A stretch of 64,000 nt of DNA from Antedon mediterranea (lineage: Eukaryota; Animalia; Echinodermata). The notes under the pieces are model-generated. The model had not been told where the DNA came from, searched no databases, and saw only the letters and a list, made by a program, of their open reading frames with translations. Where the stretch lies: NCBI RefSeq assembly GCF_964355755.1, contig NC_092680.1:15323045-15387044 (forward strand), read 5' to 3'. The position numbers were made by a program, and so were the translations under genes. Shown here in pieces: positions 1 through 56,600 of the stretch (positions are counted from its first letter, which is position 1; each line of letters opens with the position of its first letter).

Positions 1-381
1 ATGGCTGAAGTAAACAAACAACAAAACTACTGACTTTTCTCTTTCTTTTTTACTGTTAACAAGTCAGTAGAATTGTGCTGCTTGATATTATGTAATTGTG
101 AACCATTATTAACTTTTTGTACCTGTATATATATATTGTAATAACTGTATGAATTTATTTTGTAAACATTTTGTATGGGTCGAACCTCTTGTTACGAGAG
201 TGTTCCTCCGTTTTAAAGGAGAGTAACCAATAAATATTATTATATTATTAAGAGAGGGCGCTACTACATTTTACACCAGAATATTAAACTACTTATACCT
301 TCACAAATGAATGCAGTAATAATAGCTACAATATAATGTAATAACTGAAAAGAATAATTTAAATAATTTGCTTATTTACAG

Positions 382-19600: not shown

Positions 19601-21143
19601 TATGAATATTCATTTATTCTGTTACTTTCTTATTTGCATTCTCATTTACATATTATTTGCCAAGTGTGCACAGTGTGCTGTTTCTCCTTTGTTTTCCTTT
19701 GTCATAATTTTCTTTTGGAAGGAATCAGCAGCAGCTGACCTAATTGGTAGATCCAATTAAAATTCATGTTTTTCAGAAGTTTCTGATTTTTCAATTCAAA
19801 AGCCACAACATCTTTCAAGCGTCATTACTACGTGATATTGTTTTAAGCCTATAGTCTGTTTTGCACTTATCCTTTTAATATTATGTTATTATAAATGAGT
19901 AATGTAAGGCATATTGATCAGCAATGACTTATTTAATTATATTTTGTTTACGCAGAAAGCAGACATCGCAGCTGGCCCTTTGACTATTCGACCAGACAGA
20001 GTCCAGGATGTAGATTTTACCAGTGCATTTATGCAGGCTGATTTAGCTGCTCTTGTTCACCACCCTAGCTACACCACCGGGGACGTACTAAGCTTTTTGT
20101 ACCCATTCTCTCTTTGGGTATGGCTTTTAAACATCGTTGTATTTGTGGTGGTTAGTCTTATCATCTACGGAATCAATTATTTTGACCCATACGAGTGGCG
20201 CTTGACTGCTTTGCGCGGGGACGCGTATGAGGAAAACATGGACAATTTCAATTTATCTAACACAATGTGGTTCCTTACATCTACCATGCTTTTTCAAAGT
20301 TTCGATACATCTCCAAGATCAAACGCAGGCCGTGTGATGGCGATATTTTGGTGGGCTTTTGTCGTCATCATGGTCTTCCTTTATATCTCGAACTTACCAT
20401 TTTTTCTTCAGTCTACGAAACGACTAACAGGCATAAGATCAATGGATGAAATGCTTGACCGTTACGACGTACAACCGGGTATTGTAGCAAGTGGTTCCAC
20501 ATTCCACCTTTTGAAAAAATCGAAAGATCAAACACTGAACCGGTTTTTTAAATTTGTGGAATATGCCAATCCAAGTGTTTTAGTGTCAAGTACAGAACAA
20601 GGCATTGATCTGGTGCGTGATAAAAGCAGACGTTTTGCTTTAGTTGGCGAATCTCCAGTTTTAGCATTCCATGCCTCAAAGGATCCGTGTGATCTTCATG
20701 TGACTATTGGGAAGATTTACAGACAGAGTTACGGACTTGCTATTCGGAAAGACTCGCCGTTAAAGGAACCGTTGTCTCACGCCATAGAACTACTCATAAA
20801 AAATGAACAGCTACATCGTCTTGAGTTAAATTGGTGGCAGAGGAATAACAGATGTGGAAACATGACAACCTGGGAGAAACAAGGCATTTATTCATTTACG
20901 TCAGTCGATCTCTATGGTATATACATCTTACTCGCGCTAAGTATGATCGCCAGTATTGTGATCTTTATGGTGGAATTTCTTTGTTGTGATTCAAGTAAAC
21001 ATCAGAAAAAGAGCAAGAAAAGGAACAAGCCTAGCAGTAAAAGGAAGGAAAATGAGCAATTTACCCTCTCTGTTATAAATGGTGATCGCACACCAGAGCC
21101 ACCTATGATACTATCTACAGAAAAAGAAAAACAATGGCTTTAA
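10669..21143 (+). CDS. Divergent ionotropic glutamate receptor, cluster gene 2 (~920 aa)
   Basis: Exons 10669-10744 (signal peptide MASFRLFIFIISILFTFSNA), 13490-13684, 14167-14424, 14540-14769, 16123-16452, 16876-16983 (GC donor), 17600-17731, 18418-18663, 19956-21143. Total 2763 nt in frame; same iGluR domain order as gene 1. Confidence 0.92.
11278..11398. mobile_element. Small TIR element (Harbinger-like MITE)
   Basis: CAATTTACACAGA...TCTGTGTAAATTG inverted ends with internal ACGG/CCGT symmetry. Confidence 0.55.
14946..15078 (+). mobile_element. Short Helentron-associated (DINE-1/HINE-like) element
   Basis: (ACAG/ACCG)n microsatellite followed by the hairpin AGTCGCGTCCACGCGACT and AAAAA; AGTCGCGT also occurs near the 5' end. 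Confidence 0.55.
15225..15975 (-). mobile_element. L1/Tx1-clade LINE ORF2 fragment (post-RT region), antisense in gene 2 intron 4
   Basis: KTLGLSKLVY...IIFDFLWDGKREKVKR..L...YESGGVKAPDF....SLKISWLKRL...W...LWYNKMI...F..W...GV..IKD is typical of L1/Tx1 ORF2 downstream of RT; truncated at both ends. Confidence 0.85.
17012..17326. mobile_element. Degenerate Harbinger-like MITE
   Basis: AAACCTGTTTTCCACTAG...CTAGTGAATAGGCTTT imperfect TIR with CGCGAA subterminal motifs. Confidence 0.5.
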
Positions 21144-25500: not shown

Positions 25501-28500
25501 TGGTTTGTTTATATGAACTGTCAAGCTATTTACATATCGTAGCATGTAAATATGAATAAACGTTAGTAGGCTGAAACTTTATTAATCAGAAATCATAAGA
25601 AAAGATTATCTTAGCTCCCTCTGGAATCAAGGAAAATACTAAACACAGAATGGAAGCATCGATACCAGAGAATGGTTTTCAATTAAAGTTACCCTTTTTG
25701 CTTCAAATTTAAAAAAGAAATGTGGGATTCATTCTTTGAAGTAATATTGAACTAATTGCCTTTAGTTTTAAAATGAATAAATAATGATTGATAATATCAC
25801 CAAAAACGAGTTCAGTAAAACAAACCATCCAAGCCACGAAATGTCAAGGAAAGTCAACAAAAACAGGTGTACTTTAAACAAAATTCGACTGGGACTCATA
25901 ACAAGAGTAATTTCTACTTTCTATTTCGGGCACCCATCAAAACAGGTCATTCCTACTACCAGCTGATTGGAAGAGACCTGTCATGATGAAGTTATCAACA
26001 TTATACTCTTCAAATCGATTAACATGCTTGGCGCGTGCAAAATGCAGTAGACATCGTAGTATCTGAATATAAAATGAAAGCTTGTCAGAGCCATAAAGGA
26101 AAATAAGTTTAGGGTTTTAAATGTCTTACCAATTATTACACTTTATATTTTCTTATACAGGTACTTTGTTAGAAACTTTCTCCAAACGAAAGCGGAAATG
26201 AATATTTTCCCAATTCTGATACATTTCACATATCATGTTCCGCAGGTTTTTTGGTATACAAATTCCTGACCTCACTAATTACTACGGTACTCGAGAATAT
26301 TTTGTAGTGAATGTCGTTGCGTTTTATATTAATACCATTGAACTCTCTCATTTATCATTGTTAGCTGGTTTCAGTATAATTATTTTCCTGTTTTTTTATT
26401 CTGGCATTCTTATTTTTATACAATAGCAATTAAGCTAACAAAACCGTGAGTCATCGGGCGTATACTTCGTGGTAACAGTAAAATAATAATTATTGATTTA
26501 CACTGGTAACAAGAGCGCGTCGTATATGCATATTGAAAGAACACGGATTTTGTATTTGTAGGCCTATACGTTATTTTGGTTTAGTATGCTTTAAACTACA
26601 CACAGTTAACGTATACATGACTTCATAAACGTGTAGCTGTTTGTTTTTCTGAAAAATAAATTCCACTAATGTTTTCAAGTCAAAAATCATTATAATCAAT
26701 TTTATTACCCTATAAACTACTATATATATTTAATATTTAAAATATTAAACTCCTGTGTTTGTATGCGTAAGCAATCTTCATTAATACATTCGTCGGTAAG
26801 ATATATCAATAATTTTAAATAAATATTAATTAATATAGTAATGGATGTGTTATATGACCTTAAAATAGATTTTTTTTCACAGCAAAGGGAAAGTGCAAAA
26901 TTCGTGAATAACAAATAATAACGAAAACATTTTGTTGTTGTGATATTTGTGTGATAGCAAGGCGAATATTATGTTTTTCTTTGACCGTGTTGTCAATATT
27001 ATTTTATTTTAATACAGGTGCCATACTAGGAGAAGAAACTGGACGGGTCGGCAGCGTTTACTATGAAATACTTGACCACGCCATGGCTGTGATTCGATCA
27101 AATAGTACATTCTTAACACAATTTCACAAAGATGTATCAGAAGTTGTTGTCGTACAACAGAGCAATGACGACTTATATCCAGCATTAAAAGAAGGTAAGA
27201 AATATCATTTAAAACAAATTTAAAATAGGGTTTTTCTGTACCGTACATCAACAGCAATAGAACTAATCGTGGCGTAGGCCTATTGATATGTTTAAATTGA
27301 ATAACTGTAGCATCATGAATTAATAAGGGAAATAAATACTTGCTTTTGACTGGACTTCAATAAAAAATAATGAGGTTAGGGTTATCCAAAATAAAAACTT
27401 AGAAATAATGTTTTTATGGTTACTTATATTATTTTTCCATTTCAATGATATATACTGTGTTATTGGTCTGTGATTTAGTTTAGTTTCTTATTTTGTATTA
27501 TCATATTGAATATCGTAATACAATACGACGATACATTTATGAACAATCGTTCTTTTATAGTCTGCGATTTTATCCAACAAGAAGTACCATCCACATTAAT
27601 TATCACAGAGGACGTATGTGGTGATGACGTAGGTACATTTATCAGTTATGGATTACCTGGACCAGTATTCACTGTCGACCCTGGTCAGTTTGGTTCCGGA
27701 TCCAGAGCCATCAAGATGTACCCTATCCCGGAAGATATGAGCATATTTCTTCTTGACATGCTTGATTATTTTAAGTGGCGTAAATGGACGATAGTTTATG
27801 AAGATTCTCGTAAGTTGTATTAAAAATATCTATTTATTACAGTATTATTACAGTATTAATCAGTGATGGCACCGTATATAGGTTGAGGGCGGGGATGATG
27901 GTGAGGAGTTGTTATAGGGGAAGATGAGGTTTTAACCGACGGAATACTCGTCTGATTACTTTAATGGTAATGAACTTTAGGCTTGATTTTTAAACACTGT
28001 CTGTGTAAAGCTCCGCAATAGGCCATTTAAGCGTGGTTCCCACTAGAACGCGACGTATCGACGCAAAGTGCTGTATTGCGTAATCACAAGTGGGAACCGA
28101 TGACGCAATAGTGCTGCAAACATCGCAGGTTTGATTTCAAGCAGGCGGGGGCAAACACAATTATTAGAAGGGCATTCTCCTACGTTGCGTAGATTGCGTT
28201 ACGTTGCGTCCCTAGTGGGAACCAAGCTTTAGCTTTGAGATTATCTTTTTTTTTTTGTAAGAAGTGACTGTACTGTAAATACAACATTATGTTATTTTAT
28301 ATTATTACAGAATACAATACATTTTCGGACATATTAGTTGCTGCTTCTGCCAACAAGTTCAACGTCACATTACGTGAATACAACGGTGACGTCGCCGACT
28401 TAGCTGAACAAATAAAGGCTGACGGGAACCAGAACATTCTTCTGATGACGGAGAGTGAGGAAACGACAATAGACATTATAAACAAAGGGGTAGCACAGGG

Positions 28501-31500
28501 AATATTCTCAAGCACGTATCATTGGATGTTGGCTTATCTTGTAAGTCTTTTGTTTTGTTTTTCTGCTCTCCGTGTATTATTATTATTATTTGATACAATA
28601 TACAGTAGTAATTTTGTTTTAAGAATCGACCGAGTTATTAAAAAAGTATGTTTATTCATTATATATTTATTGATAATTTACAATAATCATTTCTCTATAG
28701 GATGTATTTATCGATCGCAGTTTGGAAGAAGTTTTAGAGGAGGAAGGAGTGTACATGACCCGTTTTAAAATGAACTACACTACTGAATGGCAATACACAT
28801 ACCCATCCATACAGATCAATAATCGTGAGTCTCGCGAATGGAGTATGCGTGAAAAGCTGATTTTCGACGCTTTTGTCACTGCTGCGTACGGTCTTAGACG
28901 ATATCATGAAAGACGAGGGGCTACTGGACAGAGTCTTACTAACGTGTTTCCTGGTGAAAGTATCATTAAACCGTGTGAGATGGAGAATCCAAATCCCCGT
29001 GAACTCGATCCTCTCTATTACGATATGCAATGGGTAAATATGATATATTTAATATGGTAATACAGATCTGTTAGTCTACGCCTAATTTAGAATAGATTAT
29101 TTGTGTTGGACATTACATCAATGACGCCTTATCTACCATATTTTGGATTTGGGGTGATATTTTACTTCCATAAAAGAATGTAATTATTGACCGAATGCGG
29201 TTGGATCATGGACTGGACACCTACTAGATGATAGGCCTACTACCCTTTCCTAATGTTACTTCCATTATAATCACACATATTATTGTTATATACATATATA
29301 TTATTATTAATAATAAATAAATAATAACGGGATTTTTATAGCGCACATACCACTCAAGAGTGACTAAAGTAAATTGATAAAATGTCCATCATATAATTGC
29401 AACTGCTATGAAAGATAAAAGCATCCACAATTTAATTATTATCTTTTGTTGTATAGTATAACTTTGAAGGACTAACAGGAAACATAGCGTTTGATGAGAT
29501 GGGTAATCGTGTAAACTATTCCTTAATGGTGTACAGCGGACGTGGAAGAGCTTTCAATCAACTGGTAAGTTAAGATTACGAAGCAGTAAAGATGTCCCAA
29601 TTTCCTTTTCGTCTTTCTTATTCTTTTACATTTCTGCTCATATTTCCACCTTTCAATCTTGAACTTCATTTCAGAACTGTACTTTATTACCATCTTATTG
29701 TTCTTGTTCATCTCTATTGTATATAGTCTGTATACAATGAAATATAATGGGTAAATGGTTAAGCATATAATTGTATTTATTATTATTTATTAACAGAGAG
29801 GTGAGTGGGTGCAAAATCCTGCGCACTGGGAGCAAAGATATTCAATACCATATGAAAGTGAATCCAGGTTTAATATCACACGATATTTGAAAGGTGAAGA
29901 CAGGAAACTCCAAGTCGTTTCCATTGAGGTAAAACTGACATTAAGAAAATCATTATAATTATATTATGGTACCTGTTTTTAATCTACAAAAATCTCACCG
30001 GTAGTGAGAATGGTATTAAAAATTGAATTTATATGTTCAAAATAGGCTCCACCATTTCTGACTGTCAAAACTGACGGAGAAAAAGATGCCACGAATGGTC
30101 GATTTGAAGGTTTTATAATGGAGCTTCTGGAGGAAATCAAAAACTCCATCAAACGCATTGAGTTCAACTATGAAGTAGAATTGGTACCAGACGGTAAATA
30201 TGGACGTCCAGGAAAATACAATCAAATCTGGAGTGGAATGGTTGGGGAAGTTTACCGAGGGGTGAGTTTAAAGCTATATTTACGACGACTAAATCATTTA
30301 TTGTGGTTTTAATGGGCAGGTGTTTGGTGGTAATATACGTTACGTATACTAACATAAATATTCAATAACTTACTTTTAAGATGTTTTTATGTCTTACAGA
30401 AAGCTGACATTGCTGCTGGCCCGTTAACTATTCGACCAGATCGTGAGGCCGCGGTGTCTTTCACATATCCCTTTATGGATGCTGGAATTAAGGTAATGGT
30501 GCAGCATCCAAACCACGTGAAAGACGATGTTTTCAAAGTCTTCTACCCGTTCGCACTAGAGGTCTGGATTTTGAACGGTTTTCTTTTCTGCTTGGTCGGC
30601 TTAATTATGTATCTTTGTAACTACTTCAGTCCATACGAATGGAGAGCTGCTGCTGAAAGAGGAGATGTGTTTGAAGAGAATCGCGATAATTTCAATGCTA
30701 AGAACTCAATGTGGTTTTTGGCGTCGACGCTATTCCTTCAGAGTTTTGACGCATCTCCAAGATCAAATTCAGGCCGCGTCATCACAGTCTTCTGGTGGGC
30801 TTTTGTTATTATTATGGTGTTCCTACTTCTCAGCAATGCACCATGGCACTTGAACTTTTCAAAACGTCTTACACGAATTCGAACTATGCATGAGTTGGTG
30901 GACCAAATAGATGTTCAACCAGGGATGATAGATTCAGAATCAACGTTTTACTACTTCAAAAAATCAAGAGATAACACAGACAATCAGTTTTATAAGACGA
31001 TACAGAATGCAAATCCAACTGGCAAGGTAAAAACAATGGACGAGGCCGTGAAGAGAATTCGAGATTCTGGTGGATCGTACGCGTTCTTAGGAGAATCACC
31101 AATTTTAGAATATGAGGCATCCAAAGAACCATGTGATCTTTTTGTAGGCAGTGGAACTCTTGTGCAGCAAAGTTATGGGTTGGCAGTACGCAAAGGTTCA
31201 CCATTAGAAGAACCGCTTTCTCATGCCATTCAAAATCTTCGAGACAGTGGGGTCATTCACCGTCTGGAGCTTAACTACTGGGATAGACACAGTCGATGTG
31301 GTAACTTGACTACTTGGGAAAAACAGGGTATATACTCTTATACTTCATACGATTTAAGGGGTGTATATTGCCTGTTTGTTATTGGATGTGTAATAAGTTT
31401 AATTGCGTTTGCTGTCGAGTTCATGTGTTGCAATCCAAGACGCAAGCGAAAACCAACCAGACAATCTCAGCCTCAGCGAGAGACTTCAGCGGGCAACGGA

Positions 31501-31554
31501 ACCAGTGTTGACTATGAACTAACCGGTCCAACCAAAGAGAAACAGTGGTTGTGA
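22578..31554 (+). CDS. Divergent ionotropic glutamate receptor, cluster gene 3 (~895 aa)
   Basis: Exons 22578-22665 (signal peptide MAHAVVNVLVCVLLFHANVHIANG), 27018-27194, 27561-27809, 28311-28540, 28701-29033, 29457-29564, 29797-29928, 30046-30261, 30400-31554. Total 2688 nt in frame; closest paralog of gene 2 (same introns, same KEKQWL terminus). Confidence 0.92.
24843..25207 (+). repeat. ~80-bp direct repeat (24843-24920 and 25127-25207)
   Basis: ATAATTTTAAGTATG[C/T]TGACTAA..CCGATGATGAACAGTTT...ATAATAGTTTCGTCATTGGTGAACAATT occurs twice in gene 3 intron 1. Confidence 0.85.
28028..28230. mobile_element. PIF/Harbinger-like MITE
   Basis: TIR AGCGTGGTTCCCACTAG...CTAGTGGGAACCAAGCT flanked by TAA/TTA. 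Confidence 0.8.
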
Positions 31555-36512: not shown

Positions 36513-39500
36513 TTACAAATATTCCGAAGCTCCGTGACTAGTAGGTTGTCCTGAGTTCCTGTAGGGGTCGTATTGTGGAGCACCTTGAGGATCGTCATTT
36601 CGTTCTCTTAACGTCGTCTGAAACATAGTTGGGCATAGCAGATATGCTACAAGATCGATAAAAAGCATTGTCAATGTACAACCAATACCAATCAGAAGAA
36701 GATAATAAGCTCCCTGTAAGTCTACCAAAGTAAGCGACCAAAGTCCTTCTCTTTCCCAGAAAGACACACCACTGCATTTACCCTCTCTGTATAACCACTT
36801 ACTTTCCAGATCGTCAATGGTACCGTTTGATTTTAACATATTGATAGCATACGAGAGTTGGTCCCTTACGGGTGAGCCACTTTTTGTAGCCATAGCAAAG
36901 GCGAACTTATCCAAGGTATGTTCACCAATATGAACATCACATGGCTTATTTCTTGTGAAAAATTTCAGTACATTGTGGTCTTCGACAAGGCTGTAATCAC
37001 CATCTAACTGACGAACACGTTCAATACCATCTTGGATGTTTCGAACGATGGGACTAGGTTGAGTGGTTGCTACCATGTTGAAGAGTGCTCTGTTCGAAGA
37101 TGCACCTGATGCCTTCAAGTAAGAATATACAGGCGCGTCTTGCACAAGACCTACATCAATCTCCACTTTCTGGTTAAGTTCATGAACGCTTCGGATGTGT
37201 GAAAACTGTTTGTTGAATACTAAAAACGATGAAAGATGCATGCCGTAGAGAAAAACTGTTATCAATGCTAACATCCACCAGAATGCTGCCAAAACGCGTC
37301 CGGCATGTGATCTTGGCGAGGCGTCATAACTCTGCAGGAATACTGTGCTGACTGCGAACCAGATTGAGTTACGAATGTTGAAGTTATCTGCGTTGATTTC
37401 ATATGATTTACCATCTTGCTCAATAACCGTTCTCCATTCATTCGGATTGTAATGGTTGTAGAGGAAAAGTAGACCAGCAACAAAGAACATAGAAAAGAGA
37501 GTGATGAACCAAACTTCAACGCCAAGCGGGTACATAACATTGAAGGAGTAGTCATGAATATTATTAGGATGTTTTACTAGAAGGTGAATCTTTCCTTTCA
37601 AATAAACATTTGTGAAGTCAATATCAGCTTCTCTTTCGTTAGTCTTAACTAGTGGTCCGGCAGCCGCATCTGCTTCCTAACATGAAGAAAGAAAAAAATA
37701 TATATAATTATATAAAAACAAAGCATTTTGAATTAATAATACATGGTCAAGTGAAGGATACTATCAGGACAATTGATAGCGAACTTACCCCTTCCAAAAC
37801 CTCTTTCATCATTCCATTCCATTCCCCAGTTACAATGTCTTTTGTTCCGTAGTTTCGTTCAGCGTCGCCAAACACCTGTAGACGGTAGTCTATGTCAATG
37901 TTCAGAGAACGCTGCAGTACATCTTGGATGTATAACATGAGATCAGGGAGGAAGCCCTCATATCGATCGTTCCCGGTGTACTGTGAAACAAACGATTGCT
38001 GCTCGAAATTTTTCCTCTCTTCGTCAGTCATGTATTCTTCCTTGTTTTTAGTCATTACGTACGGAGCAACCTACATAAATCAAGGAAGATACATGTCAGC
38101 AACTAGTGTATTTGACTATCATATTAGTGATTATTATTATATAGATACATTTATGTATAATTATTGAGTGTTTATGTCCATAATCGAATAACAACGCATA
38201 CAAAGTATACTATTGACATTTTAACAGCATCGTTAAAGTTCTGTTTATTTTATCAAACTTTTTGTGACAGAAAATGTGATGTGCCCAATAATGGACATGA
38301 TGATGTCATATCACTACAACATTCACTACCATATTTGAACACATCACACTTTTTTGGTCAATTAGACAAAGCTCAGTTTACAAAGTACTGTTACCCAGTT
38401 ACCCTACTCTGTATTTCAATGAAATGGAAAGAAAATTATTACTGAACGTTTCCTCACCTCAACCATTGAAATAACAAGGTGATCGTCTTCAGCTTGGAAA
38501 TAGGGATTCATCCTAAGTCGCTGATTAGAAAACCTGTCCGTTGCCCGTTTGAAGCGATTGTATGGATCGTAGTCGGGATTTTGAAGCCACTCACCTCGCT
38601 AGAATAAAAACAAAATGTAATTGCATGAAGAATATCCACAATTGCTATTATCTTGATAAAATCCTATGTTAAAAAATCAAACTACATAAATGCATAATTA
38701 CCCAAAAATGGAGAGTATCTCCTACGCCACTGGTGATGGATATCCTATAGTTTTTTCTACTTCCTTGCTCGTCGAATGCTACACGACCAGACATTCCTTT
38801 AAAATCAACCTGAAAATAATGTAATCGCTTAAGTTTTGTACTTTGTGTCCAGTACGGTGATAATATCTAATCGGACGATTTTGAAAACCACCATGAATTA
38901 AAAATCTCAAACATATAATTTAAAACCAAACCAGATAGAGCACAATGGAATCAGATGCTGATTTTAGGCGATTGTTGCCGACGCAAAGTCTTCTCCTAAA
39001 CAAATTGGGAGACCTGTCTCCTCCATCACTCAAATTAACCGCGCAGTAGGTAGTTTACAAACCATCGTACATACCTTGCTAAAGTAATCCATCAGAACTG
39101 AACTTTCCTCTTCTGAATCACACCGTTTCATGTTCACACGTACGTTATTGCTCTCGTCTACAAATGGACTGCCATTATCGAATCCTCCATTGTCTTGTCT
39201 GCATAAGAAATCACGATATTAAAATGTATAGGACAATTACTGAAGACAATATAGATAAGCAAAACGTTCAAGAAATTAGCCAGAGAATTTAAATATTGAT
39301 AACCGACTTAAATTAATGATTTGTATAACAGTTTGAATAGGGTGTATGAACGTACCCGAACATCTTCAAAGCATGACCCGTGGCAAGAGCGGAGTCAAAA
39401 GCCAATCGCTGTCGGAATTCGTATTTTGTACGCTGTTTGGTAGTGGTTGTTGAAAGACTACCGTCCGTCTCATTCATATTGAACCTTGTGATAAATGCAT

Positions 39501-42500
39501 CTGTGTACCGTAGTTCTTCAATAAATCCACGCTCCAAAAACAAGTCCTATTTGAAAAAAAAATGTTTAATCACTTATCCGATTCTATTTTCAGTACTAAG
39601 CATGATAGTCCTTCATCTTTAAAATTGGCATTTCATACATAACTGGAAACATCAAGGTATAAGCTATTGTAGGTAAATACAGTAACATGCCAATGTATAA
39701 CAATCTAATTAACATCATTCTCCCTTGATTAATATGAATACATGTAAAGTGTTGATATAAAGTTAAACGTACGTCGTATGTTTTAAATGAAGGAGCTGTT
39801 GAGTTTTCATAACTAAAATATACGTGGTGTAGACCTACCGCAAATTCTATATCAACATACTGATTTCGCCATGTAAACCTTCAAACAATATAATACATGG
39901 AATATACTCGTACGGTATTCTACAGCAGTACTACATATGTGTGTTTTGTCATTTACATTTTATTATGAAATATATACTATATACGGTACTTACAATATTT
40001 GCAAGAATCCAATGAAATCCTTTAGTGACAATTCCATATTCGATGCCCTGTGAAATTACAATAGAACTGTTAATATAATATATTAACCGTAAAGAATGGG
40101 ATGTCAGCAGTGGTGGAATAGAGATAGAAAACTACTGCCGGGATGAGTGTTAAATAAAAACAAAATCTGTTATATAAATATTAGCACTTGTTTTAAAATT
40201 GTTAAGTAAAACATATGATTTGGAATAAAGTAAAAGAAATTCTAATTTAAAAAAAAATTCCATTTTCTTCGACATTAAAACATATTTTTGTATTGTGCAT
40301 TGTATATTTTTATTTTATGTCTGGTTCCGACAAATACTAACACTACTTTACTATATAATATTGTCCGCGGCGCGTGGTGTCAAGGATCGTGGAGCTAATC
40401 TTGTCGCAGCCACAGATAAATCATTTTTTCTCCGAAGCCCACCATCCTGTTGTTAACTGTTGATGGTGGGTTGAATTAAGATAAGGACGTAAAAATAGAA
40501 CGTAGATTGCCTTGATTGTATTATGAAGGTTTATACCTCTATGATTGTATCAAGTTATTTATTAGATGACATATTATTTACCTTTTCGATGACTTTCAAA
40601 GCGACTTCTTCTGTAAATGTGTATAGAATGATATTGTTTACGTCTTGTAAGCTATCAAGCTTGATGGCATCCGCAGTCTCCTGGAAGTCTTCTGAAAGTG
40701 GCAATAGACGAATGTTCCAGCCGTAGTCTCTTGCTCCAGCTAGCAATGGCGACAAATTTTCGACAACTAAAAGAAAATAATAATGTGTTACTCTATGATT
40801 TAATTATTTTCGACAAATAAATAACATAAGTGATGTGTTACTCCATGATAACATCATAGAGACAAATTTTCTCTATGGTCACACTGACACATCCCACTTT
40901 AGTTATTTTCTACAGATTAAAACCACATAGAACATAAAATAATGTTATACCTTTATGAGATAGAATTCATGAATTGTAAACCAGTAAAATAAATTACTGT
41001 ACCTGGCAAAAACAGTTATTTTACTGGTGTACAATTTATGAACTCTGTCTCATTACTAAATCGAAACCAGATGAAAATGTTTTTAAATGTTATACCTTAT
41101 AGGCCTAATGTTATATGGATTTTAAAATTTCTTCTTGAATATAATTCAAGAAATTTAAGTAAAATTATATCAGATATACTACTGTATAGGCCTACTTACT
41201 TTTACCGTTGTCGTAGAGTATTATAAAATCTACCCATTTAAAATATTGCAGCATGTCTACAAGCAAAGAATTGACATCTTCTGGTGATGGGTACATCTTT
41301 ATAGCTTCCGATCCCAAACTACCTGGATCAAGGTTAATAATGGGCCCAGTTGCGTAAGTGATGGTGTTTGACAAGTCATCGCAATCTTCGCAGACATCTT
41401 CCGGAAGGACCAGAGAAGTTATTCCCCGGCCTACGACTGATCCAGAACAAACTGAAAAGGCAACAAATGAAACGGCATATTACAATTTGAAATTTGTGGT
41501 ATACTAGTACACATATCATTGTATATTTACCCACATCCAACCTTAGTCCAGATTTAGGATTAATGCATGACGGTGATGTTTAGGCTAAAGTTTGACTAAC
41601 GTAGGTTAGGTTAATTGTGGGTGAAAGGAGAATACAGATCACTAGTTACAGTATTATATTTTATTTAGGTTTACTCGAGACATTGTACATTCAAATATTA
41701 CTGTAGGCCTACTGATTAGTACTGTTCTTTTATTGTCTGACAGTGATTTATTTTAAATATAACAATCTCAATCGGTCATCCTATAACGAGGATTTAAGAG
41801 ATATCTTACCGTAAACAAGAGACTGCCAATAAGAGCCGTATGTTTGTCTTTGCAGATCTAATCTGATAGTATCACGCCCCAGAAAATCTTCATCGTCTTC
41901 AACATGCTCCAGAGCATCACGCAGAATTTGATCGTACTCGCCATCTGCGCTACCTGTTCGTTCTCCAAGAATAGCAGCTACAAAAACACGAAATTATAAA
42001 ATGTTATAAGAATATCACACATGGCCTATATGTTATAATTGAAATGTTTAATTAACCAGTTTTTATTTGATTAAATTTATGATATCAATACTTATTGAGA
42101 AGCAAACAAATATTTCTCTAGACCGGCTCGATCATCCAACTTACCCCCGTTGGATATAATACACTAATGTCGAAGATTCCGTTTAAAACGTGTAATATTG
42201 TACGGTAGATAAAACTCATACCAGAATATTTTCATTTCATTTTTATGTTAAAAATATTCTCTATAATATTCAATATTCGTTATCAATAATTATATAATAT
42301 TTTGTTTTAAATTACTATTATCATTATTAATTCTAGGCCTAATTTTGTTTTATTAATATTCAAATACAACGGTACCGGTATTTAACCTATTATTTTTATT
42401 ATAATCTGTATAGGCGTATATGGGTTGAATATGGGTTTACCTAAATTAAATATGTATTACGAAATTAGACATGAAAAGTAGAACAATATCTGGAGTAAAA

Positions 42501-45500
42501 TGTTACTCTTCCCTGCCCGCGATACGCTGTGTAATTAGTGGACCTGTTGGACCATTTAATCATTTGATTGCTGCTATTAAAATATTCTACACAAAACAAT
42601 GGAACAATGGTATTGTGTTTTCGCGTAAACGCCCTTATTAATCATCATGTCTTCAAATTAACATATTTTTTTTTAATGGCAGTGTACAACAATAATGCAA
42701 ATGAGCTGCATATAAGACGAAATCACTTACAATACAGTAGCCTACTGAACACATCCTTTGTTAAAACACAATAAAAACCTAACATGCGTTTACAATAGGA
42801 AATTTCAGTAACAGGTATTTGAATAGTTAGTCGTTGTTTGAAAATCGATATTTCTTATAGCTGAATATAACAGTAGAAGTTCTATGTAGCATATTTAAAT
42901 ATTCATGTACAGTACACTTAAATGTTCATAGCCTGAATTGGATGTAGTGTTTGGAATATTTGTAATGATAGGCCTGCATAGGCCTAAAAAACATGGTTAT
43001 TGTGCTCAAATTGCAGAATACCGACAGTATTCTCTCTACTCTACGAAATATTCCACTTTTTTATACGGGACAAGAATTCTAAAACGAAGGAGACAAAGCT
43101 TCATTTAACCGTTGAATCATCTGCCTGACTGACTAAGTGAAAATAATATTTACAGTAAAGAAACCGAGGCTTACTGAGTAAATGGAGGGATACTGATAGG
43201 CATTGATCGCTGTTTCATTACAATCATTTACCAGAGAGTTGTTACAACCCTGCATTTACACGTTAACTTCCTCCTGCAGACTGTATTTTGAGAATAAGGT
43301 CATTGTCATTCACTCCCCAACGTCCAATCACCATAATTACCATTTGATTAATTACAATCATCGTGTAATTCAAGTACTTTTCACTTGTAAATATGGGACG
43401 CAAACCCACAAATTATTCCGAAATAATGTATATGTTTAACTTTAACCAGGTTTAACATGATATCTAAAATGACAGCTTGACGTTCCATTATGCGAGATGG
43501 TCGCAAAAACATGAACATTAAACTTTAGAATTTAAATTTCAAGTGGGCTGTTGGTTACTAAACATCGTACGATCGATGAAAGAATTTGTTTTTTCACATT
43601 TTTAAATCTCTGGGGCTATTTGATATATAACGCTAGTGCACCTGTGAATGATTTTATTTGAAAAGGTATTGTTCGAAGGCTGGGCCTCTGTTCCGACCCT
43701 TTGAATTCAAATCGGTTGATTTACGATCCTCAATGGTGGTGGAGCTTTTTCTTTGCAATATTATTAAGAGCCACAGAGGTACCTTTTTGTTTTCGAAACA
43801 TGCCTGAGGATTACGAAATAATTGCTTTTATTTATTTTGAGCTAGAATTTCGAGAGACGACGGAGCTTGTATATTGTTAACGAGGTTTTTTATTTGCTGC
43901 AGTTATATATGTCTCATCATTGTAATCCAGGTACACAGTTTACTTATTGTACAGGTACACTGGCATGGCAATTTCAGTCAAAGTGTTGAAACTGAGAATT
44001 AATTAATTTAATTTAATTAATTAATTTATAAAGAGTAATAAAGCAATACTATGTGAGAAAGTCTATAGGAATTTGTTTGCAAACAAAAAATGAAAACAAA
44101 ATGTAGATGAAAGGCACCAGTCCGTCTGAAAGCGTTTGATTTATTACCTCAGAACTTGACCCATGACCCACGATGTGTGTCTCAAGTAAATTAGGACATA
44201 CGGGTATAAACTCCAAAATAACAAATGATATTTTCAGATTCACAACGGAACAAACAGAAATAATATTCATTAACAAGATCTGATCACCAGGGTTTTTGAA
44301 ATTTTAATAGGTGTTCTGAAATTCTCACCGGGTGGAAGGAATTGACTTCCTTTGTGGATCAGGCAAACATTTCCTAATTGGCGTCAAAATGTCTATATTT
44401 AAAATAATATAAGTGACTTCAGAAAGCAGAAACGAGTTTGTACAATTGGTGATGAATCTCATTTTACACGGGGTTAATCACAATATTGTCAATGAATAAT
44501 TCTATAGGTGGATTAGCCTCATCAACGGCCAACAAAAGACATTATTGTGTTGTGAAAGTATTAGGAATTTATGACTCATAAACCCGATACATTTCCAATC
44601 ACCTACTGTGATAGTTTGGAGGGCGCCCTTATTTGTGATAATAACACATTATTAATTTAGATCTGAATTGATTAAAATATTAAAGTTTTAAAAATAAAAC
44701 AATGTTTTTAGTTTTAGAGTTGGATAGTTAGATTTATTGAAATATCTGTCAAACTCAGCTCAATGCACGCACAAATGATTCAAAGCCCCTTCTTGTACCA
44801 TATTTTTAAATACAGTGACATGCTGTTTTGAGGATCTATTCTCGTTTTTAATAAATTCTCATAATACCATTTAACTTCTTTTTCAGGAAATTATATCGTG
44901 AACCGCCAACCTTACTTGTGTTTCTTGACATGTTTAAATATGATTAATGTTGATCTATGAGGGTTAACTATACTGGTTGGTATTACTGTAGTTCAAAAAT
45001 GTAATTTTATCTTTTGTGTAAATGGGCACTAAGGCCACTCGATTAGTTTCATTAGCATAATTAAACTTAAAGGTAGTGTAGTTAGTACCCATAGACGTGT
45101 CCCTGCATATATTAACGAATGATGCATGAGTTTGTTTCGATCTTTTGTTTTCGTTCTGAATATGTAGCGTTAATTGATTTGTTTTTAATTGTGGTAGATA
45201 ATGAATAGTTGTGAGAAGTCCATTACGCCATCGACAAAGAATGTGTTTCCTTATATACAATACAGTATACTCTTTCAGCACGCCTTCTACACCTCAATGA
45301 GACTTCCATTAAAATGTATATACGTAGTGAATTACAGGCTAATAAATTAGAAATATGAGTACGGCGCCTAACGAAATGTGACGCTTTCCAGCCACAAAAA
45401 ATGGAAAGTAAAAGTCGCGCGTTCTCCGGAAACTCCATGCCCGGGATCGGAGACATTTAATGTATAACGTACGGTATGATTACATTTGTTTTGTAAACAT

Positions 45501-45878
45501 TTCAAATATACGCAAACATAATTAGTAATTATATTACTTATTTTATGAGCAAAAAAAGATTAATTGTTACAGAACAAGCTAACACACGCATAACATTGGA
45601 TACACAACATTAACCTTAGTTAATTATATTTTAGTATCGACATATTATTCTGTAAGCGACTGGTATATCAAATGTATGTTACCATCCACCAACCATCAAT
45701 ACTTACTTGTAATGACAATGATAAAACCAATGAATTACATTTCATTAAAAAAAATTAATAATCTATTGGTACGTAAAAAAAATAGAAAATGAAACTTACC
45801 CATTTTCAACTCGAGAGCTAAAGCCACTTGTTGGACTCCGATGGAGAGAAGCAACACAAGCGCCACTTTCATCGCCAT
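36513..45878 (-). CDS. Divergent ionotropic glutamate receptor, cluster gene 4 (~915 aa, 11 exons)
   Basis: Minus-strand exons 45878-45800 (signal peptide MAMKVALVLLLSIGVQQVALA), 41977-41810, 41451-41200, 40766-40582, 40047-39994, 39546-39356, 39198-39075, 38809-38702, 38598-38458, 38070-37789, 37676-36513. Total 2748 nt in frame. Confidence 0.92.
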
Positions 45879-47679: not shown

Positions 47680-50600
47680 CTATAACCATTCTTTTAGTTT
47701 TGTTGTTGTTGCTTCTGTTTGCTCGTACACATTTGTTTCGTTACTACGCCCATTTCCTACGGAGTGACCTCTGCCATTAAATGGCTGCCTTTCTCTTGAT
47801 GGAATTATTGAAAAATGGCGTGGATAATGAAGCAACATATAACACATTAGTTCCAAGAAGAAAAACAGAAGAGAAAAAGCTATGCCAATAAACAAAATAT
47901 AATAAACACCCTTCAGATCTACAATAGTTAATGAGTACAATCCCTGATTGTTCCAGATAATAAATTTGTCATCACACTCACTTTTGGGTTGAAGCCACTT
48001 CGCCTTTAATTCTTCTAATACATTCCTTTCTCTTAATAATCTTATTGCGTATGATAGCTGATCTCGAAGTGGCGATCCTGACTGTACAGCTAATCCATAT
48101 CTTGATGTACCGATAGCCTGTGGTATAAGATAGACATTGCATGGTTCGTCTGTAATTGCGTTCAACATTAAAGCCGTGTCAGCTATAAATGCATACTTTC
48201 CATTGCTTTCACGAACCCTTTCGACACCACTTCCAACGTCACTGACGTAGGGATGCTCTATACTTGTGAACATGTACTCAAACATAGAATGGAGATCTCC
48301 AGTTTGAGAATTTTCTAGCATTGCATACGTAGATCCGTCCTCTACACAGCCATAAACAATATCTGTCTGTCTGAGAAGGTCTCGCGCTGTCTGATAAAAC
48401 GCTTGCTGTTTATTAACGCGCATGTAGTCTGAAAGATTTGCAAAATACGATGTTAACATTATGAGCGAAAACAACCACCACACTGCTGCTCCAATGCGAC
48501 CGGCATGCGAACGGGGAGATACGTCATAGCTTTGAAGAAATGCACTTGATGTTAAAAACCATATACAGTTCTTAAAATTAAAATTTTCCTCGTTTATTGG
48601 ATGAACTTGCTCTTTTCTGGCTGCGTTACTCCACTCTAATGGGCTATTTCGGTTGATGATCCACAGTAAAGAAGCTACAAGAAATAATGCTACTAGGTTG
48701 GCACACCATACTTCAGTGCCAAGTGGGAAGGCAAAACTAAAGTCTCGAGTATTGTATACGTAACTGGGATGCTTTACTAGTATTTGAACTGGACTTTCGC
48801 CAAAAGGTATTGTAAAATCAATTACTTCTTCGCGTTTATCAGTAATAATTAACGGGCCAGCAGCAACGTCAATTTCCTGCACAAAAATATAAAATAGTAA
48901 TATTACCTATGAAAACAATACATACCGGTAACAATAATGATAACAGAAATTTATATAACGCTGACCATATATTTTGTTTTTTTTTGCTCAAGAGATGGAA
49001 CTTTCAATTAAGGTTGAAAAAAGCGGGCGTAGAGCGGCATAGTGTGCTATGAGATTACATAGATATATTGTATTGTGAAAATAAACTGACTAAATAGTCA
49101 GCAAAAGCCATTAATTGATATACACAGCGTTGTTTATTGTGAGCCAATGAAGATTCTTAAGGATAGGAGTGGTGCCGGTAATTATGATGACAACGTGTGA
49201 AGGAATATGAAAACAGTAATACTACTAGTATATGCTTAAAGAGAAATACTGTAATACTAACCCCGTTGACTACTACGCTAGCCCACTCATTACTGTCCTC
49301 GTCACCATAACCGCCATTGTATACATTAAGTTCATAGTCAAAGTCAATGCCCTCAGTTTGTAATACATTACGCATTTCTGCCATGAGATCTGGAATATAT
49401 CCTTCATACCGTGCATTACCTTCCAGAAATTCGTTGTTTTCGTCATGTTCAATTTCCATCATAAATGGTGAAATCTAAGAAAAATCAAGAAACTAGAATT
49501 CTAGCAATTTCATAAAATATAGACAAGGAATATAACGCAAACCTTCATCCACATAAAACGCCAAAGAAAAAACCCGTTTTGACGAACTTGCAAGCACCCT
49601 ACATACAGGCCCAATGTTACCAAGGTAATCTAATAACAGGACAGTAAGCTCGTCTTGCCAAGATAGAAACTCGTAACAGTTCTTTGATCTTATGTCTGGC
49701 TGCGAAAAATACCAACAGTACTGTACCATGTACATATTCTACGCGGTGCGCGGTGTCTGGAAAACTGATCGCGTCGCAGCCACATATAAACAGTTGCTGT
49801 TAGATTGCTTTGCTTTGACGAACTTGCAAACATCCTACATAAGGCTCAAATAAGTTACCAGCTAGTCCAGATGTTTAGTCAGAATGGGAAGACCGATAAT
49901 TAGTGCAATTTTACAATAATGACTTACCATGACGCTACCGATGGAGACTTGGTCTCCAGCTGTCCACATAGAGTTAATGTTTAGGTGGACAACTTCAGCA
50001 TCCAATTCATCGTTATACAATTTCTCCCATTGATGACGATTTTGAATCCATTCTCCACGCTATAAATTTAATGATTAACAATAACACATGAATGTAAATT
50101 TTCATATCACCATGTCATTATTTACTAACGAATGTCAAAAATAAGATATAGACCCCCAGATTACATCCCTAACGCAAGTGTTTGTTTCTTTGTTTTGATT
50201 GATTTTTTGATTTGAACAAACAAAATATCTTCTACTGACGATAAAATCGCAAGACAGTTTTATCCTTAAAATAGACTGAAAAAAGCATAGGCGCCCTCAT
50301 ACTTCTGCAAAATAATGCTACGGTTAAAGGTTAAGTTGAGCACTTTTTAATCTTAAGCCTGTCCGGTTCTCTAGCTCTGAATCCGCCACTGTTTAGGATA
50401 AACATTCAGGTTTTTGTATCAGACTAAACCAGAAAATAACAATCAATCTTACCTGAAAATCCATGCTACCTCCTTTGCCGCTGAAGATTGATATCGAATA
50501 ATTTATACGTTTTCCCATCTCGTTGAAAGCAACGTTTCCCGTAAGGCCTTGCAGTTGCAACTATATAATAAAAGCATCATCCAAGTTAAGTCATGAATTT

Positions 50601-53600
50601 ATTCAAATATTTACACTATATTTATTGTATTTACATAATGTCTTATGTAACGAAGTTAACCTCACCACTTTCAAATACGACATGAGAATAGAAAAACTAT
50701 CAATAATTTGAAATTCAGTTGGTAAAATGAATGTTATCTAAAATCATATGTTATGGTTGTATACAAGTTGCAAAATAGGAAATGAATGTTTTTTTTAAAA
50801 ATATAATAGTATGAATAATTATTTATGTTTATGCTTACGTCTTTCATAAGATGATCTGCGAGTGGATTTCTAGGCATTTTCCAGCCTTCTTCTTCTTCAG
50901 CACATTTTGGCATTATGGTATTTCCAGTTAGGCCTATTGACGAATGAGGAGAGCCTTTCATTTCATTACTGGAAAATAGTAAACCAACAAATATAAATGA
51001 AAGGGAGTGAAATTATTGGCATCATTACTGGAAAATAGTAAACCAATATAAATGAAACTGTACCGCATGCAATTATTTGCTTCAATAAGAAAATGCAATA
51101 TAAAGAGCTTCGATATGCAACGAGCACCGACCTAACTATGTCAGGTCAATTGTCGGTCGTCGCCTGGACCTAGAAATCGGTGGAGGAGCGAGGATTCACG
51201 TGCCAATATCCCCGCATACGCAGAAATGAATGACGTAAATTGAAAATGGTGTTCATTATGTTCCAACATGTATGTTGTAGGCCTTTAATATACACATAAT
51301 AAAGTAGGCCTACCGGTTTAAAGTTAGAAACAAGAAAAATACACTTTAAACTACTCTTTTGGTTTGAAAGCCGTACCACGCTACATACAAAGAACAAACC
51401 GGTGGTGAGTTTTTTATTTGGTCACGTTTTGGTGATCAATCTCGAGTCACCAAGTGAACTGACAACGAATTCGTTAAATATTTATGTTACAATGTTTTTT
51501 CTACATTACCTGTAACTCTCTACAGCTTTCGAAAGAGCAAACATTGTATCAAATACAAGCTTTTGTCGGAACTTCCATTCTCCATGAGACTCTAAATTGT
51601 ACGTTGAATAAGCCACACTCGTATCAGCAGTCATTTTGAAACTAGTTACGTAGGCGTCGATTTCCAGAAGACTGTCAATATGTGTGCTATTGTAATAAAC
51701 GTCTGGATTTCCAATGATCCAATGATAATCAGTTTCCATCAGTCCATAGTCAATTGACTAAGAAATAAAGATAAAAATTAGAATAGCCTTGAAATAAGAA
51801 AAACATAATAGTATATCTATAAATAAATAAAATAACAGCAGAAAACTTGGTTACTTCATTGTTTTAATCACTACACATTTGTTTCGTACGACCAGCATGT
51901 AGCTGGCCGCACTCTTCAGGTGAAATGTAAAACATAAGTATATCTATAGTATGTCTAAGTTTCCTAGTTATGAGGGGTTAGAGTGTGAGCAATGCGCACT
52001 CCGCGGCAATGGTTACACTCATCGGGAATTTGCGTGATGAGTACCCCGGTATAAATAATAATTTGATATGGAGAATTGAAATGTTCAAACATTTTATAAT
52101 CAGCCGTTCATCAACGAATAATGTTGAGATTCTTAATTGAAATTTAGAGTAACACGTACGCTCATCAATGTGTTTATCAGTACTTCTTCTGTTCCGCAGT
52201 AAATCAGAATATTTCTAAAGTTTCCTTCAAGAACTATCTCCTCCCACGATTCCGTATCGACATCAACAAATTGTAAGTTCCAGTTATGTTCAGATGCCTT
52301 ATTTTGAAACGGTTGCAGATTCCTATATACTAAATAAAGAGATAATAAAGATAATTATGTATAGTCTGGCATGGCATGATTAGATACTACAGCAATATTT
52401 CTTCTTACGGTGGTTCAACAAACACGGAATAGCCGCATTTTAAAACTTAAAGATATATTGTCCCCCTAAAAAAATTTTTTTTTAGAATTTTTTTGTTGAA
52501 TATGTTATTTTAATGTCACATAATAGTTATTCACTCTCACAAAAAATTGGGTCTGAAAAAAATTTATTTACCTGAGAAAAATGTGATTTAAAGCAAAAAA
52601 TTGTCAAATTGTCTGGAAGACAATGAGTTTTTTCGGTAATTTAACAGTTTATTTTGTCTTTTTATAGGTGAAATGATTTTTTTCCCCCGTTTTTTTTCTT
52701 ATGGAAGTGAACAACTTCATTAATACTGCAAAATGGCCTATTCAAAGTCCGATTTTAAAAATCTTTATTTTTCATGATTTTGGGGGACAATACATCTTTA
52801 AGTTTTGTGCAATCATGTGTGTGATAATTCTATATATTAATTTTTGTTTATGTCTTATATTTATCTGGGTTTTTTTTTCGAGTAATATTTGCCAATCTTT
52901 AAGAAGAATTTATATTCTTATTTATTATGATATATGGACAAACAAGGCATATTTCAGTATAATTCATTAAATGCTATTAGTACACAATAGCATGCGATAT
53001 ACTGGACAGATAATGACATACCGGTAACGTCATTAACGAGAATTGTTGGTGTACGTATTGGTCGTGGGCCTTTACTCAAGATGTTACTGCTCTCTTGTGG
53101 ACAGCCACGTCTGTGACCAGGCTACAACTTACCCATATGGGTGTCAAAAAGTACCAAAAGCTCTTTCCATTTGTAGTGAGAGATAACATCAAAGAACAGC
53201 TCATTCATGTCTTCAGGAGAAGGATGCATGTTGAATACGTGTGATCCAAGACTACCATGGTCCATACTGAAGATTGGAGTTGATCCCTCAACCAATGTAG
53301 CTGCTATGTCTAAACAATGTGTACATATGTCTTCACTTACAAGAAGCGCTGATGGTCTATTGTTTTTAATCCATTGACAAACTATAACAAAATAATATAG
53401 AATAAAACTGACTCATACATTGATGTTACAAACTGAAGGATCTTATAATGTCCGCAGTATTTTCATAAAAGAATGCATGTTTCCAGTTAACTTTAACTTT
53501 TACAAGTAGTAATTAAGTAGCATGTATCATATAATTTTGAATACATAACAAAAATTGTAAATTTACCAGAACTGGTTGCTTTCCAGTAATGTTCAAATTG

Positions 53601-56600
53601 AGCGATTTTGTAGTCTAATGTAAGTTTGTTTCCGTTAGCAGCAAGATCACGATCACTATGAGAGAGGGCGTTTGTCATGATAAAATAGTATTCGTCTTTG
53701 GTCGCCTCATCACCGAATATTTCACCTGTATATTAGAAATTAGTAATGTAAAAAAATATTTCATTACTTGTATTATGATACGTACACATGAAGTAATGTT
53801 AAGTAAGAAGCATTGGTCTGTAGATGTTTGTAGATATCTGCAATTTCCAAATTATGTAACGTAAACAATCACGACCAAACCACATTTTCCTGTGCAGTTT
53901 TGGTGGTCTATTCAAGCATCTGTGGTTATTAAGTGCTCGCTTTATAATTGCAATATTCAACCATTGCACCTCCGTGATTAAGTTGTTGAAAGACTGAGTT
54001 CAATCTTTTACATAAATAATGCTCATTTTATTGTATGTAACAACACTGGCCAAACCACAAGAACAGTGAATGAACGTTGTAAGTCAACGTGAACGTGGGA
54101 TTGAATGTAGGAAAAATAAAGTCAGTACAAATAGGACTAAAACGAACAAATTATCAACAAAGAGAGGATTGAATGTGATTTTTTTTATTTAGGCCTATTC
54201 TTGCTTTGTTTCTGATTGACATAATCAGTCACATAAGTATAATGTACGTACATTTAAATTTCTAGGCCTACAGTCTGATTATATAGAATTAGGTCGGTCT
54301 ACTAATTCACCCTTAATTAGTAGCATAGACTTGGAGTTGTTTCGAAAAGTAAAGATTTCATGCGGAATTACTTTTATCATCATCATCATTCATAACGATA
54401 ATAACATAGCCATGATACTCTTCAATGGTTAGATAGGCCTACAAGACACCAGGACGAATTCCCTTGAGTACTACGACAGGATTATGTCCCTTGTGTCGAA
54501 CATTAATTCTGCTCATAGTCGGCTATTCTGTTCACATTAAGATTAATACTTGGTTCAGTAGATGTAGGTCGTGCACATATAAATTTCACCTAGACCACAA
54601 TGTTATCATTGCGCATGCGTAGATTTGGTTAAACTTCGCGTGCCTAAATGCAGTAAAGCTATAAACATTTTTTTTTGTGCAATTACAGCCTTGCGTGTAT
54701 AGGTTCATAGTTAACAATAACATAGAAAAAGAGGACAATTAAAGATGGTGAATGATACATATACTGTTGTCCTTGTCTTTATCAAAAAAGAAGAAAATAC
54801 ATTTATTGGCCGATACTACCCGGGGTTTATGAAACCGTGGTACGCTAATGACCTGGGTAGAGGGTGCAAGGCAAGGCATATGCCGTCATTGGTTTATATA
54901 AACTACAATAGGCCTTAGTCCATCCGTTCCCATCGCAGACGTCTTGCAAATGAAATTTTGTTTGTTTTGTTTTCCTCTGTAGTTTCAGTATATTTTTAAT
55001 TGTTAATAGGGAGGTTTCGCAACCTTACGAATACGATAACGAAAACGGATACGTCATACATTTGTAAAACTTTTGAGCTGATCCCCATTTCATATTCGTA
55101 AAGCGTATTCGTGTTGACGAATATCACCAGTCGTATTCGTAACTATAAACGAGTATAGTTTTTGATCTATTTTGCACATTTTGCATTTGAATTAGGAATG
55201 ATTCATGATTATAATATAATTATAGATTTATTGAAAGTAATTTACTAAAGTAATTTACTAAAATGCCAGGTCAATTTAGATAAATAGCAGTTTTTAAAGT
55301 CCTCACTCGCTTTGATGTTACGCTAGGCCTAGGCAGCCAAGCATCAAGCAACACGTACCTGCGCTTCGCTCAAATTTACCGCAGTCATATTTTGGACGCG
55401 CCTCGATATTTCGTTGCCATGCGAAACAGATTTTTTATGGCTTACGAAAACGAATACGTGTGCGTGACGTATCCGTTCGTTATCGTATTCGTAAGATTGC
55501 GAAACCTCCCTAATAACCATGAGCCACAATGTATTTTACTATAGTGTAAATGTGACGTGTCGCAGGAGTAGTCTCTCCTCATCAATCGGCAATGATCCTT
55601 ATTATCACAATAAGTAATGTACGGTGCTGTGCCATACTACAATTTTAACTGATTTAACCTTCGTGTATAATGATACTTTACAGTATTCTATTCCCGACAC
55701 ACAGCCTTATCATAGCATTTATCACAGAAAACATGACACACAATATTATTTATTTCACTTCTTTGTATTATTGAAATTCAATAATATATACGTTAAGTTT
55801 AGGATGCTCAGCGTAAGACTGAAATGTTCGAGGGCGATTTGTCAAATTACAATAATATATGCGTTAAGCGTACTTATACTTATTTCTAATGTTTGCAATC
55901 TACGACATATGCATAAAAACCGAGTCAAAGCATAGTAAATGCATAAATCCCAGGCCGCATGAGGTTCAAATATGGGCACCATCGATCTTGAATACTACTA
56001 TTACTACCGGGCAATCGTCAAGTTCAACAAGTACTGCTATTTAATGTGCCAACAAGCCTTAAAACAAGTACGCAGCATCCTTATTTTGTTCTTAATTTTA
56101 GCGCAGGCCAACGAGTTGATATAACTCAATGTTGTAATTACGGGACCCATCTGAGAAGAAGTGGTGGACACCTGTTTAAAGGCTAGACGGAAGGAATTTC
56201 AAGAAAACCCAGTCCAACTTAACATCTACATAGTAATGTAATCTAGTTCAACAATTACAGTGTGATACAACCATAGGGAGCGGTCTCTGATACGAATTAT
56301 CAAAGGAAATAATTTTATCATTAAGACATTTATATGATAACGTTTATGATCGTGGAATGCATGTAGAAATATAGCCGGATGCAAACCTGTTCATATCAAA
56401 AGTAGTTTCTCTACTGGGAAGGTTAAAGTTTACACTGTCCCAGTTACAATGACGTCACGTTGTGTCGTGCGTCCCCCATTAAGCTGGAACATGTGGGTGG
56501 GGACTGACCTGGAAAATTACTGTTCATGCGTGTTACCTTTCAAATGTCTCCCGTAGATAAAACCACCAGTTAAACGTTAATACTTACAATAATTATATTT

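Follow-up and report, generated by a model that had tools for sequence, protein, structure and literature searches.

The 64-kb window of Antedon mediterranea DNA analysed here contains five ionotropic glutamate receptor (iGluR) genes, which are intact tandem paralogs of a crinoid. Three lie on the plus strand (genes 1–3) and two on the minus strand (genes 4 and 5), visible as five long last exons with upstream exons, and each encodes an ATD, S1, M1–M3, S2 and M4. By this architecture of ATD, S1/S2 clamshell and M1–M4, all five are assigned to the iGluR family; the Pfam domains ANF_receptor, Lig_chan-Glu_bd and Lig_chan scored above cut-off in genes 1, 4 and 5, and Lig_chan did so in genes 2 and 3, in the last exon of each. 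Gene 1 (382..6373, plus strand) matches the 905-aa database protein P0165 by tblastn, exon model and Pfam, with residues 1–30 of P0165 not found within the 64-kb window. For genes 2 (13490..21143, plus strand) and 3 (27018..31554, plus strand), we predicted 8-exon models, each with a frame open to one terminal stop; all gene 3 introns are GT-AG, the acceptor of the second exon of gene 2 was not pinned down, and no signal exon was found in the window for either gene. Gene 4 (36513..45878, minus strand) corresponds to P0005 (915 aa, 100% match) and includes a signal-peptide exon (45801–45878); the range 36940..37676 singled out in the preliminary description covers most of its last exon. Gene 5 (47680..53725, minus strand) matches P0011 from residue 9. 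P0165, P0005 and P0011 are all database proteins named from A. mediterranea.

The intron that follows the 108-base exon of gene 2 begins with GC (16984–16985, plus strand), where the corresponding intron in each of the other four genes has GT, and a gene 2 intron harbors a 269-residue frame (15228–16034, minus strand) that by eye appears to be a LINE retrotransposon remnant and has no Pfam match. In the interval between genes 1 and 2, a frame of 144 residues from stop to stop (8127–8558, minus strand) gives sub-threshold Pfam matches to ETX_MTX2 (E 5.7e-4) and Aerolysin (E 1.1e-3) and appears to belong to an aerolysin/natterin-like gene. The intron after the first in-window exon of gene 1 carries a pyrimidine-rich, low-complexity tandem repeat (689–928). 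P0011, the database version of gene 5 (53725 and upstream, minus strand), has an acidic start with no evident signal peptide, which raises the possibility of a mis-called first exon.

Gene 4 is spliced and transcribed. Contigs from run X1 have at least eight gene 4 introns spliced out exactly, with GT-AG bounds (CT..AC joints), and we took X1 as RNA because its contigs skip eight introns in this manner. An X1 contig equals 36832–37675 with 0 differences, and X1 departs from the window elsewhere; the pocket codons of gene 4 are thus unchanged in a sample that differs at other positions, and the pocket residues are therefore real rather than assembly errors. Open gene models and the X1 transcript match together rule out assembly error or a pseudogene. 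None of the 15 of 68 splice joints listed for X1 belongs to gene 5, which is no evidence of silence. The AF2 model of gene 4 (pLDDT 86.7) finds its best PDB matches in GluA2 (E 1.5e-51), and its helix F begins at proline 654 (P0005 residue 710).

The nearest relatives of the five genes are echinoderm and hemichordate proteins. In a tree of 42 sequences and 822 columns (IQ-TREE fast search, SH-aLRT/aBayes supports, rooted on two delta-like rows, and without amphioxus GluF, Epsilon or NMDA rows), the five nest in an echinoderm clade with sea-urchin and starfish GluF proteins (100/1). This clade in turn falls within a larger one (100/1) that also holds hemichordate and lophotrochozoan rows; AMPA and kainate receptors branch separately. 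Genes 1–3 group together (96.9/1) beside GluF3/GluF_Apl-like proteins (84.9/1), and genes 4 and 5 pair with each other (97.6/1). The sea-urchin protein P0187 includes the printed N-terminal stretch of GluF2_Spu, and P0014, P0176 and P0010 resemble by eye the N-termini printed for GluF1_Spu, GluF3_Spu and GluF_Apl; the comparison with these GluF proteins of Ramos-Vicente 2018 covered their N-termini. Five hemichordate and lophotrochozoan relatives of about 465–520 aa (P0133, P0047, P0090, P0117 and P0137), too short for an ATD, diverge at the base of the clade that includes Phi.

The published marks of the Phi class are the lack of Q at position 586 and a degenerate SYTANLAAF motif (Ramos-Vicente 2018, PMC6307864). 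Genes 1–5 carry F, F, L, L and L at this Q/R site and have 4–8 of the 9 SYTANLAAF positions altered per gene. On the tree and these marks, we assign the five genes to the Phi (GluF) class of the AKDF iGluR subfamily. An AMPA/kainate identity, as in the database names, is rejected by the separate clade and by the lack of both the Q/R glutamine and an intact gate motif, the exact motif occurring in 87 of 107 AMPA/kainate-side rows and in none of the five genes. The delta class is rejected as well, since the W-D/W-E rows form another branch and residue 704 here is never Trp. GluN1, the comparator chosen in the preliminary description, is likewise the wrong reference for Phi-class AKDF subunits that lack Trp704. 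A sixth Phi paralog, P0007, lies outside the window on a contig of equal listed length, is 86% identical to its orthologue in the crinoid Anneissia japonica and has a fully canonical glutamate-type pocket.

Pocket residues were numbered on GluA2 (chain 8p3s_A, residue 493 onward), P499/T501/R506, as used in Wang 2026, being mature 478/480/485. Before alignment, 23 of 183 proteins were removed as isoforms, duplicates or fragments, and the alignment holds 159 of 162 sequences, three having been dropped for short coverage. The pocket segments of the gene 4 last exon align with GluA2 without gaps, and this alignment and the multiple alignments place R485 in all five genes. Across genes 1–5, the multiple alignments give S, T, T, V and I at residue 480, GSV, GST, EST, APV and GST at 653–655, and E, E, E, D and D at 705; all 25 residues reported earlier for these positions, as well as R485, are correct. 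Residue 704 is D, G, G, E and A, residue 732 is Y, Y, Y, F and Y, residue 450 is Y, F, Y, Y and Y, and residue 402 is Q, V, A, V and I. Gene 4 departs most from the GluA2 pocket. On the minus strand, the GluA2 and multiple alignments locate its V480 at 37647–37649 and R485 at 37632–37634, the helix-F motif A653-P654-V655 (G-S-T in GluA2) at 37128..37136, and E704-D705 (L-E in GluA2) at 36978..36983, with E704 at 36981–36983; F732, where both GluA2 and the Anneissia orthologue have Y, occupies 36897..36899, beyond the range considered earlier.

Of 12 pocket sites, the Anneissia japonica orthologues of genes 1, 2, 4 and 5 retain 12, 11, 10 and 10, respectively, at LBD identities of 95, 77, 80 and 69%, with 229 of 240 LBD residues of gene 1 identical between the two crinoids. 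No Anneissia orthologue of gene 3 was found among the matches listed. In this second crinoid, gene 4 keeps V480, A-P-V, E704-D705 and its gate, the gene 2 orthologue (P0013) has D653, and the gene 5 orthologue, with T480 and E705, has a fully canonical pocket. Proline 654 is not unique to gene 4, occurring in 10 of 159 aligned rows, nine of them echinoderm Phi. An acid at 704 is found in only four of 158 aligned sequences, namely genes 1 and 4 with the orthologue of each, every one of which carries V655, and genes 1 and 4 stand on separate tree branches.

By published rules, G, S or T at 653 with T655 and Y732 indicates glutamate, S653 with a hydrophobic 655 and F732 indicates glycine or D-serine, and residue 704 touches the ligand side chain (Singh 2025). 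Genes 2, 5 and P0007 agree with the glutamate rule, and genes 1, 3 and 4 depart from it. Gene 4 shows two of the three glycine/D-serine features (A653, V655, F732), with Y732 in its Anneissia orthologue, and is by sequence the nearest of the five to that rule. Wang 2026 (PMC13648236) warns that pocket motifs are poor predictors of ligand. In that study, residue 480 is uncorrelated with ligand, glutamate-selective receptors occur with YD, ED or TD at 704–705, a glycine-selective receptor carries DE, and glutamate selectivity is seen in a cnidarian receptor with GSL. In our alignment, a goose kainate-2 receptor has Ala at 480. We accordingly discarded residue 480 as a ligand marker and D705 as a glycine marker; the earlier statement that Asp705 with a hydrophobic 655 is typical of glycine/D-serine subunits does not make residue 705 diagnostic. 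In the published work, G653 is described as incompatible with glycine, and rat GluA2 stays glutamate-preferring with a lone T655V; changing GST to SSV or SAV drastically cuts its glutamate potency, and A at 653 is seen among the non-glutamate receptors of the same alignment (Wang 2026, PMC13648236).

These observations partly redraw the sorting proposed in the preliminary description, in which genes 2 and 3 were glutamate-like and genes 1, 4 and 5 bound other amino acids. Gene 2 (F450, T480, R485, GST, G704-E705, Y732) is still glutamate-type by the published rule, and gene 3 (T480, R485, EST, G704-E705, Y732), with E653, agrees with no published rule, nor does the D653 of the gene 2 orthologue. 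Because residues 480 and 705 are not diagnostic, the two grounds for excluding gene 5 (I480, R485, GST, A704-D705, Y732) from the glutamate group fail, and G653, T655 and Y732, together with an orthologue carrying T480 and E705, leave its non-glutamate listing unsupported. Gene 1 (S480, R485, GSV, D704-E705, Y732), like gene 3, is of mixed type by the published rule, and the T655V and GSL results weaken its listing as a non-glutamate receptor. The proposal that gene 4 is unlikely to bind glutamate survives as a prediction from a pocket that lacks G653 and T655 and has P654 and F732, and we consider it quite probable that this receptor does not prefer glutamate. The occurrence of G-S-T, Glu at 705 following a variable 704, and Y732 in P0007, gene 2, the gene 5 orthologue and the starfish protein P0010 suggests, by parsimony, that the gene 4 pocket is derived.

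We compared the pocket with its background at reference columns where 107 AMPA/kainate-side sequences show at least 80% conservation, counting each gene at each site as one cell. Departures from consensus affected 12 of 40 pocket cells compared with 119 of 315 other LBD cells (p=0.39), and in gene 4 alone 6 of 8 pocket sites compared with 29 of 63 others (p=0.15), these Fisher tests being rough because they assume independent sites. The LBDs of the five paralogs are pairwise only 29–53% identical, so that some pocket differences are expected. We therefore see no positive evidence of pocket-focused divergence: the pocket varies no more than other conserved LBD sites, which leaves room for drift, and its differences alone do not demonstrate the ligand-diversified panel that had been proposed. 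What is clearly held fixed in echinoderm Phi proteins is R485 (27 of 27 rows) together with an acidic residue 705 (28 of 28), in counts that include near-duplicate pairs.

The account we favor, by a modest margin over even chances, is that the ligand of gene 4 is GABA or some small neutral amino acid and that genes 2 and 5 remain glutamate-type, within a tandem set of five Phi genes. The duplications occurred within the echinoderm Phi branch, before the split of the two crinoids, and all five products retain the R485 and acid-705 clamp. The ligand carboxylate would engage R485 and its amine D705, upon which the clamshell would close. In GluA2 structures, the backbone amide of residue 654 is a pocket contact. 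In gene 4, V655 would remove the hydroxyl that anchors the gamma-carboxylate, E704 would place a negative charge next to the gamma-carboxylate site, and P654 would eliminate the backbone amide, so that the three changes together would disfavor glutamate. Closure would then tug on a non-standard M3 gate and might open a cation pore, in a homomer or together with other Phi subunits, which is the weakest step of the scheme. Some features of gene 4 run against this account: A653 in place of S and Y732 in the orthologue leave the glycine rule incomplete, and the upper lobe has Val402 instead of Glu402, which delta receptors keep and which aids GABA potency. In its favor, the crinoid possesses neurons positive for glutamate and others positive for GABA (PMC11336682).

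The weakness of the last step is apparent in the pore itself. The M3 segments of genes 1–3 (plus strand) are at 5609, 20379 and 30823, and those of genes 4 and 5 (minus strand) are at 37250 and 48450. The gate of gene 4 reads LYGMHLSSF (37224..37250, minus strand) in place of SYTANLAAF, as does that of its Anneissia orthologue, and its Q/R-site Leu is at 37335..37337 (minus strand); this site is L or F in all five genes, with the Asp at +4 retained. A proline occupies position 621 within the gate helix of genes 2 and 3, and the lurcher residue of gene 5 is Asp. In a rival account, the subunits would not be ligand-gated on their own but non-conducting, leak-type or modulatory, with the pocket largely drifting around a retained amino-acid clamp. 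The M3 gate departs from consensus in 29 of 45 cells (119 of 315 for the LBD; p=0.001), an excess that the pocket does not show. T617, A618, A621 and the lurcher alanine A622 are kept in 0, 1, 1 and 0 of 28 echinoderm Phi rows, compared with 119, 121, 116 and 118 of 122 non-Phi rows; mutating the lurcher alanine opens channels (Singh 2025), and all 28 Phi rows have L, F or W at the Q/R site. However, 24, 26 and 27 of the 28 rows retain the M3 residues N619, L620 and Y616, respectively, gate positions are conserved between paralog and orthologue (9/9, 8/9, 9/9 and 6/9), the clamp residues are invariant, and plant GLRs share a hydrophobic Q/R residue, a plant-pore chimera being able to conduct (Singh 2025). 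We regard the lack of autonomous gating as unlikely, although it is the strongest competitor. The gate motif is rebuilt in every echinoderm Phi protein of the alignment, and ligand-driven channel opening is not assured. This rebuilt gate, the Phi class, P654, F732 and the acid at 704 had all been overlooked in the preliminary description.

A more conservative possibility is that all five remain glutamate receptors and differ in potency and kinetics only. The apparently glutamate-type ancestral pocket fits this possibility, as do the unchanged preference of GluA2 with T655V alone and the glutamate selectivity that GSL and ED receptors can show. Against it, gene 4 joins a non-glycine 653, Pro654, a hydrophobic 655 and F732, and both the company of A653 and the effect of double motif changes in Wang 2026 point away from glutamate; we consider it improbable.

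We give slightly less credence still to the idea that genes 1 and 4 separately turned the distal pocket into a cation-binding one, through V655 and an acid at 704, and sense lysine, arginine, ornithine or a similar amine. The restriction of acid 704 to four V655-bearing sequences, the separate positions of genes 1 and 4 (1+2+3, 4+5), the side-chain contact of residue 704 and the near-identity of the gene 1 LBD between crinoids would all fit, but only two lineages are involved, a shared ancestral state with reversals could produce the same pattern, and DE and ED occur in a glycine-selective and a glutamate-selective receptor, respectively (Wang 2026). Equally doubtful is the boldest version, in which echinoderm Phi receptors would make up a sensory panel diversified in ligand, its gate differing from that of every recorded iGluR, and genes 1 and 4 would have converged on a charge-reversed pocket for basic amino acids or amines. 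If true, this would mean an animal iGluR for lysine or arginine.

Returning to the favored account, in which genes 4 and 2/5 differ in ligand type, several known systems offer comparisons. The closest are the Phi proteins themselves (GluF1-3_Spu and GluF_Apl), which share the clade, the absence of Q586 and the degenerate SYTANLAAF (Ramos-Vicente 2018, PMC6307864). At least six Phi paralogs are present in the crinoid, compared with three in sea urchin and one in starfish in that study, where similar numbers of Phi proteins were predicted to bind glycine and glutamate, and whose available portion makes no mention of the V655 plus acid-704 pocket of genes 1 and 4. Scallop GluF genes are likewise tandem Phi duplicates with variable residues 653 and 655 and a mix of predicted glutamate- and glycine-binding members, and their expansion has been linked to domoic-acid tolerance (Zeng 2021, PMC8437780). 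They belong to a molluscan branch and represent a separate expansion, with ligands predicted in both cases, but are, by analogy, a precedent for pocket variation. A Phi panel diversified in ligand has already been proposed in print.

Outside the Phi class, starfish GluD resembles gene 4 in V480, a small residue 653 (SSL), a hydrophobic 655 and D705, and is GABA-gated (PMC10861852, PMC13648236); it is, however, a delta-class receptor with Trp704 and Glu402 where gene 4 has Glu704 and Val402, and the delta-like rows of our alignment keep a near-standard M3 motif, unlike the five genes. GluN1 similarly has a hydrophobic 655 and Asp705, but belongs to the NMDA subfamily and carries an SSV/SAV-type motif and Trp704, whereas gene 4 has APV and Glu704. 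In amphioxus, the Epsilon receptors GluE6, GluE8 and XP_019645125 are close same-species paralogs shown to differ in preference, switching among glutamate, GABA and glycine/alanine (Wang 2026, PMC13648236); function was measured in this Epsilon set, whereas that of the crinoid Phi genes is predicted from sequence.

In literature accessible without subscription, our search yielded no functional recordings from Phi receptors. An echinoderm-specific iGluR subfamily has reportedly been labelled GluH, and no GluH recordings were found in the literature either. That subfamily, with a putative sensory role, is also an echinoderm expansion and is reported in tentacles (Sania 2021, doi 10.1111/mec.16206). 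In its available part, Wang 2026 (PMC13648236) includes Anneissia in the tree and expresses no Phi receptor, and much of the branch that unites AMPA/kainate, Phi and other AKDF receptors has been termed uncharacterized (Rosano 2024, PMC10861852).

The new element is a crinoid Phi cluster, belonging to a receptor class that is already described. It yields six intact paralogs from one animal, five of them with an orthologue in a second crinoid, and their pockets range from canonical to strongly altered. The cluster could serve as a test set for whether Phi receptors gate with a rebuilt M3 and for how well pocket motifs predict ligands, with P0007 and its canonical glutamate pocket as a natural positive control.
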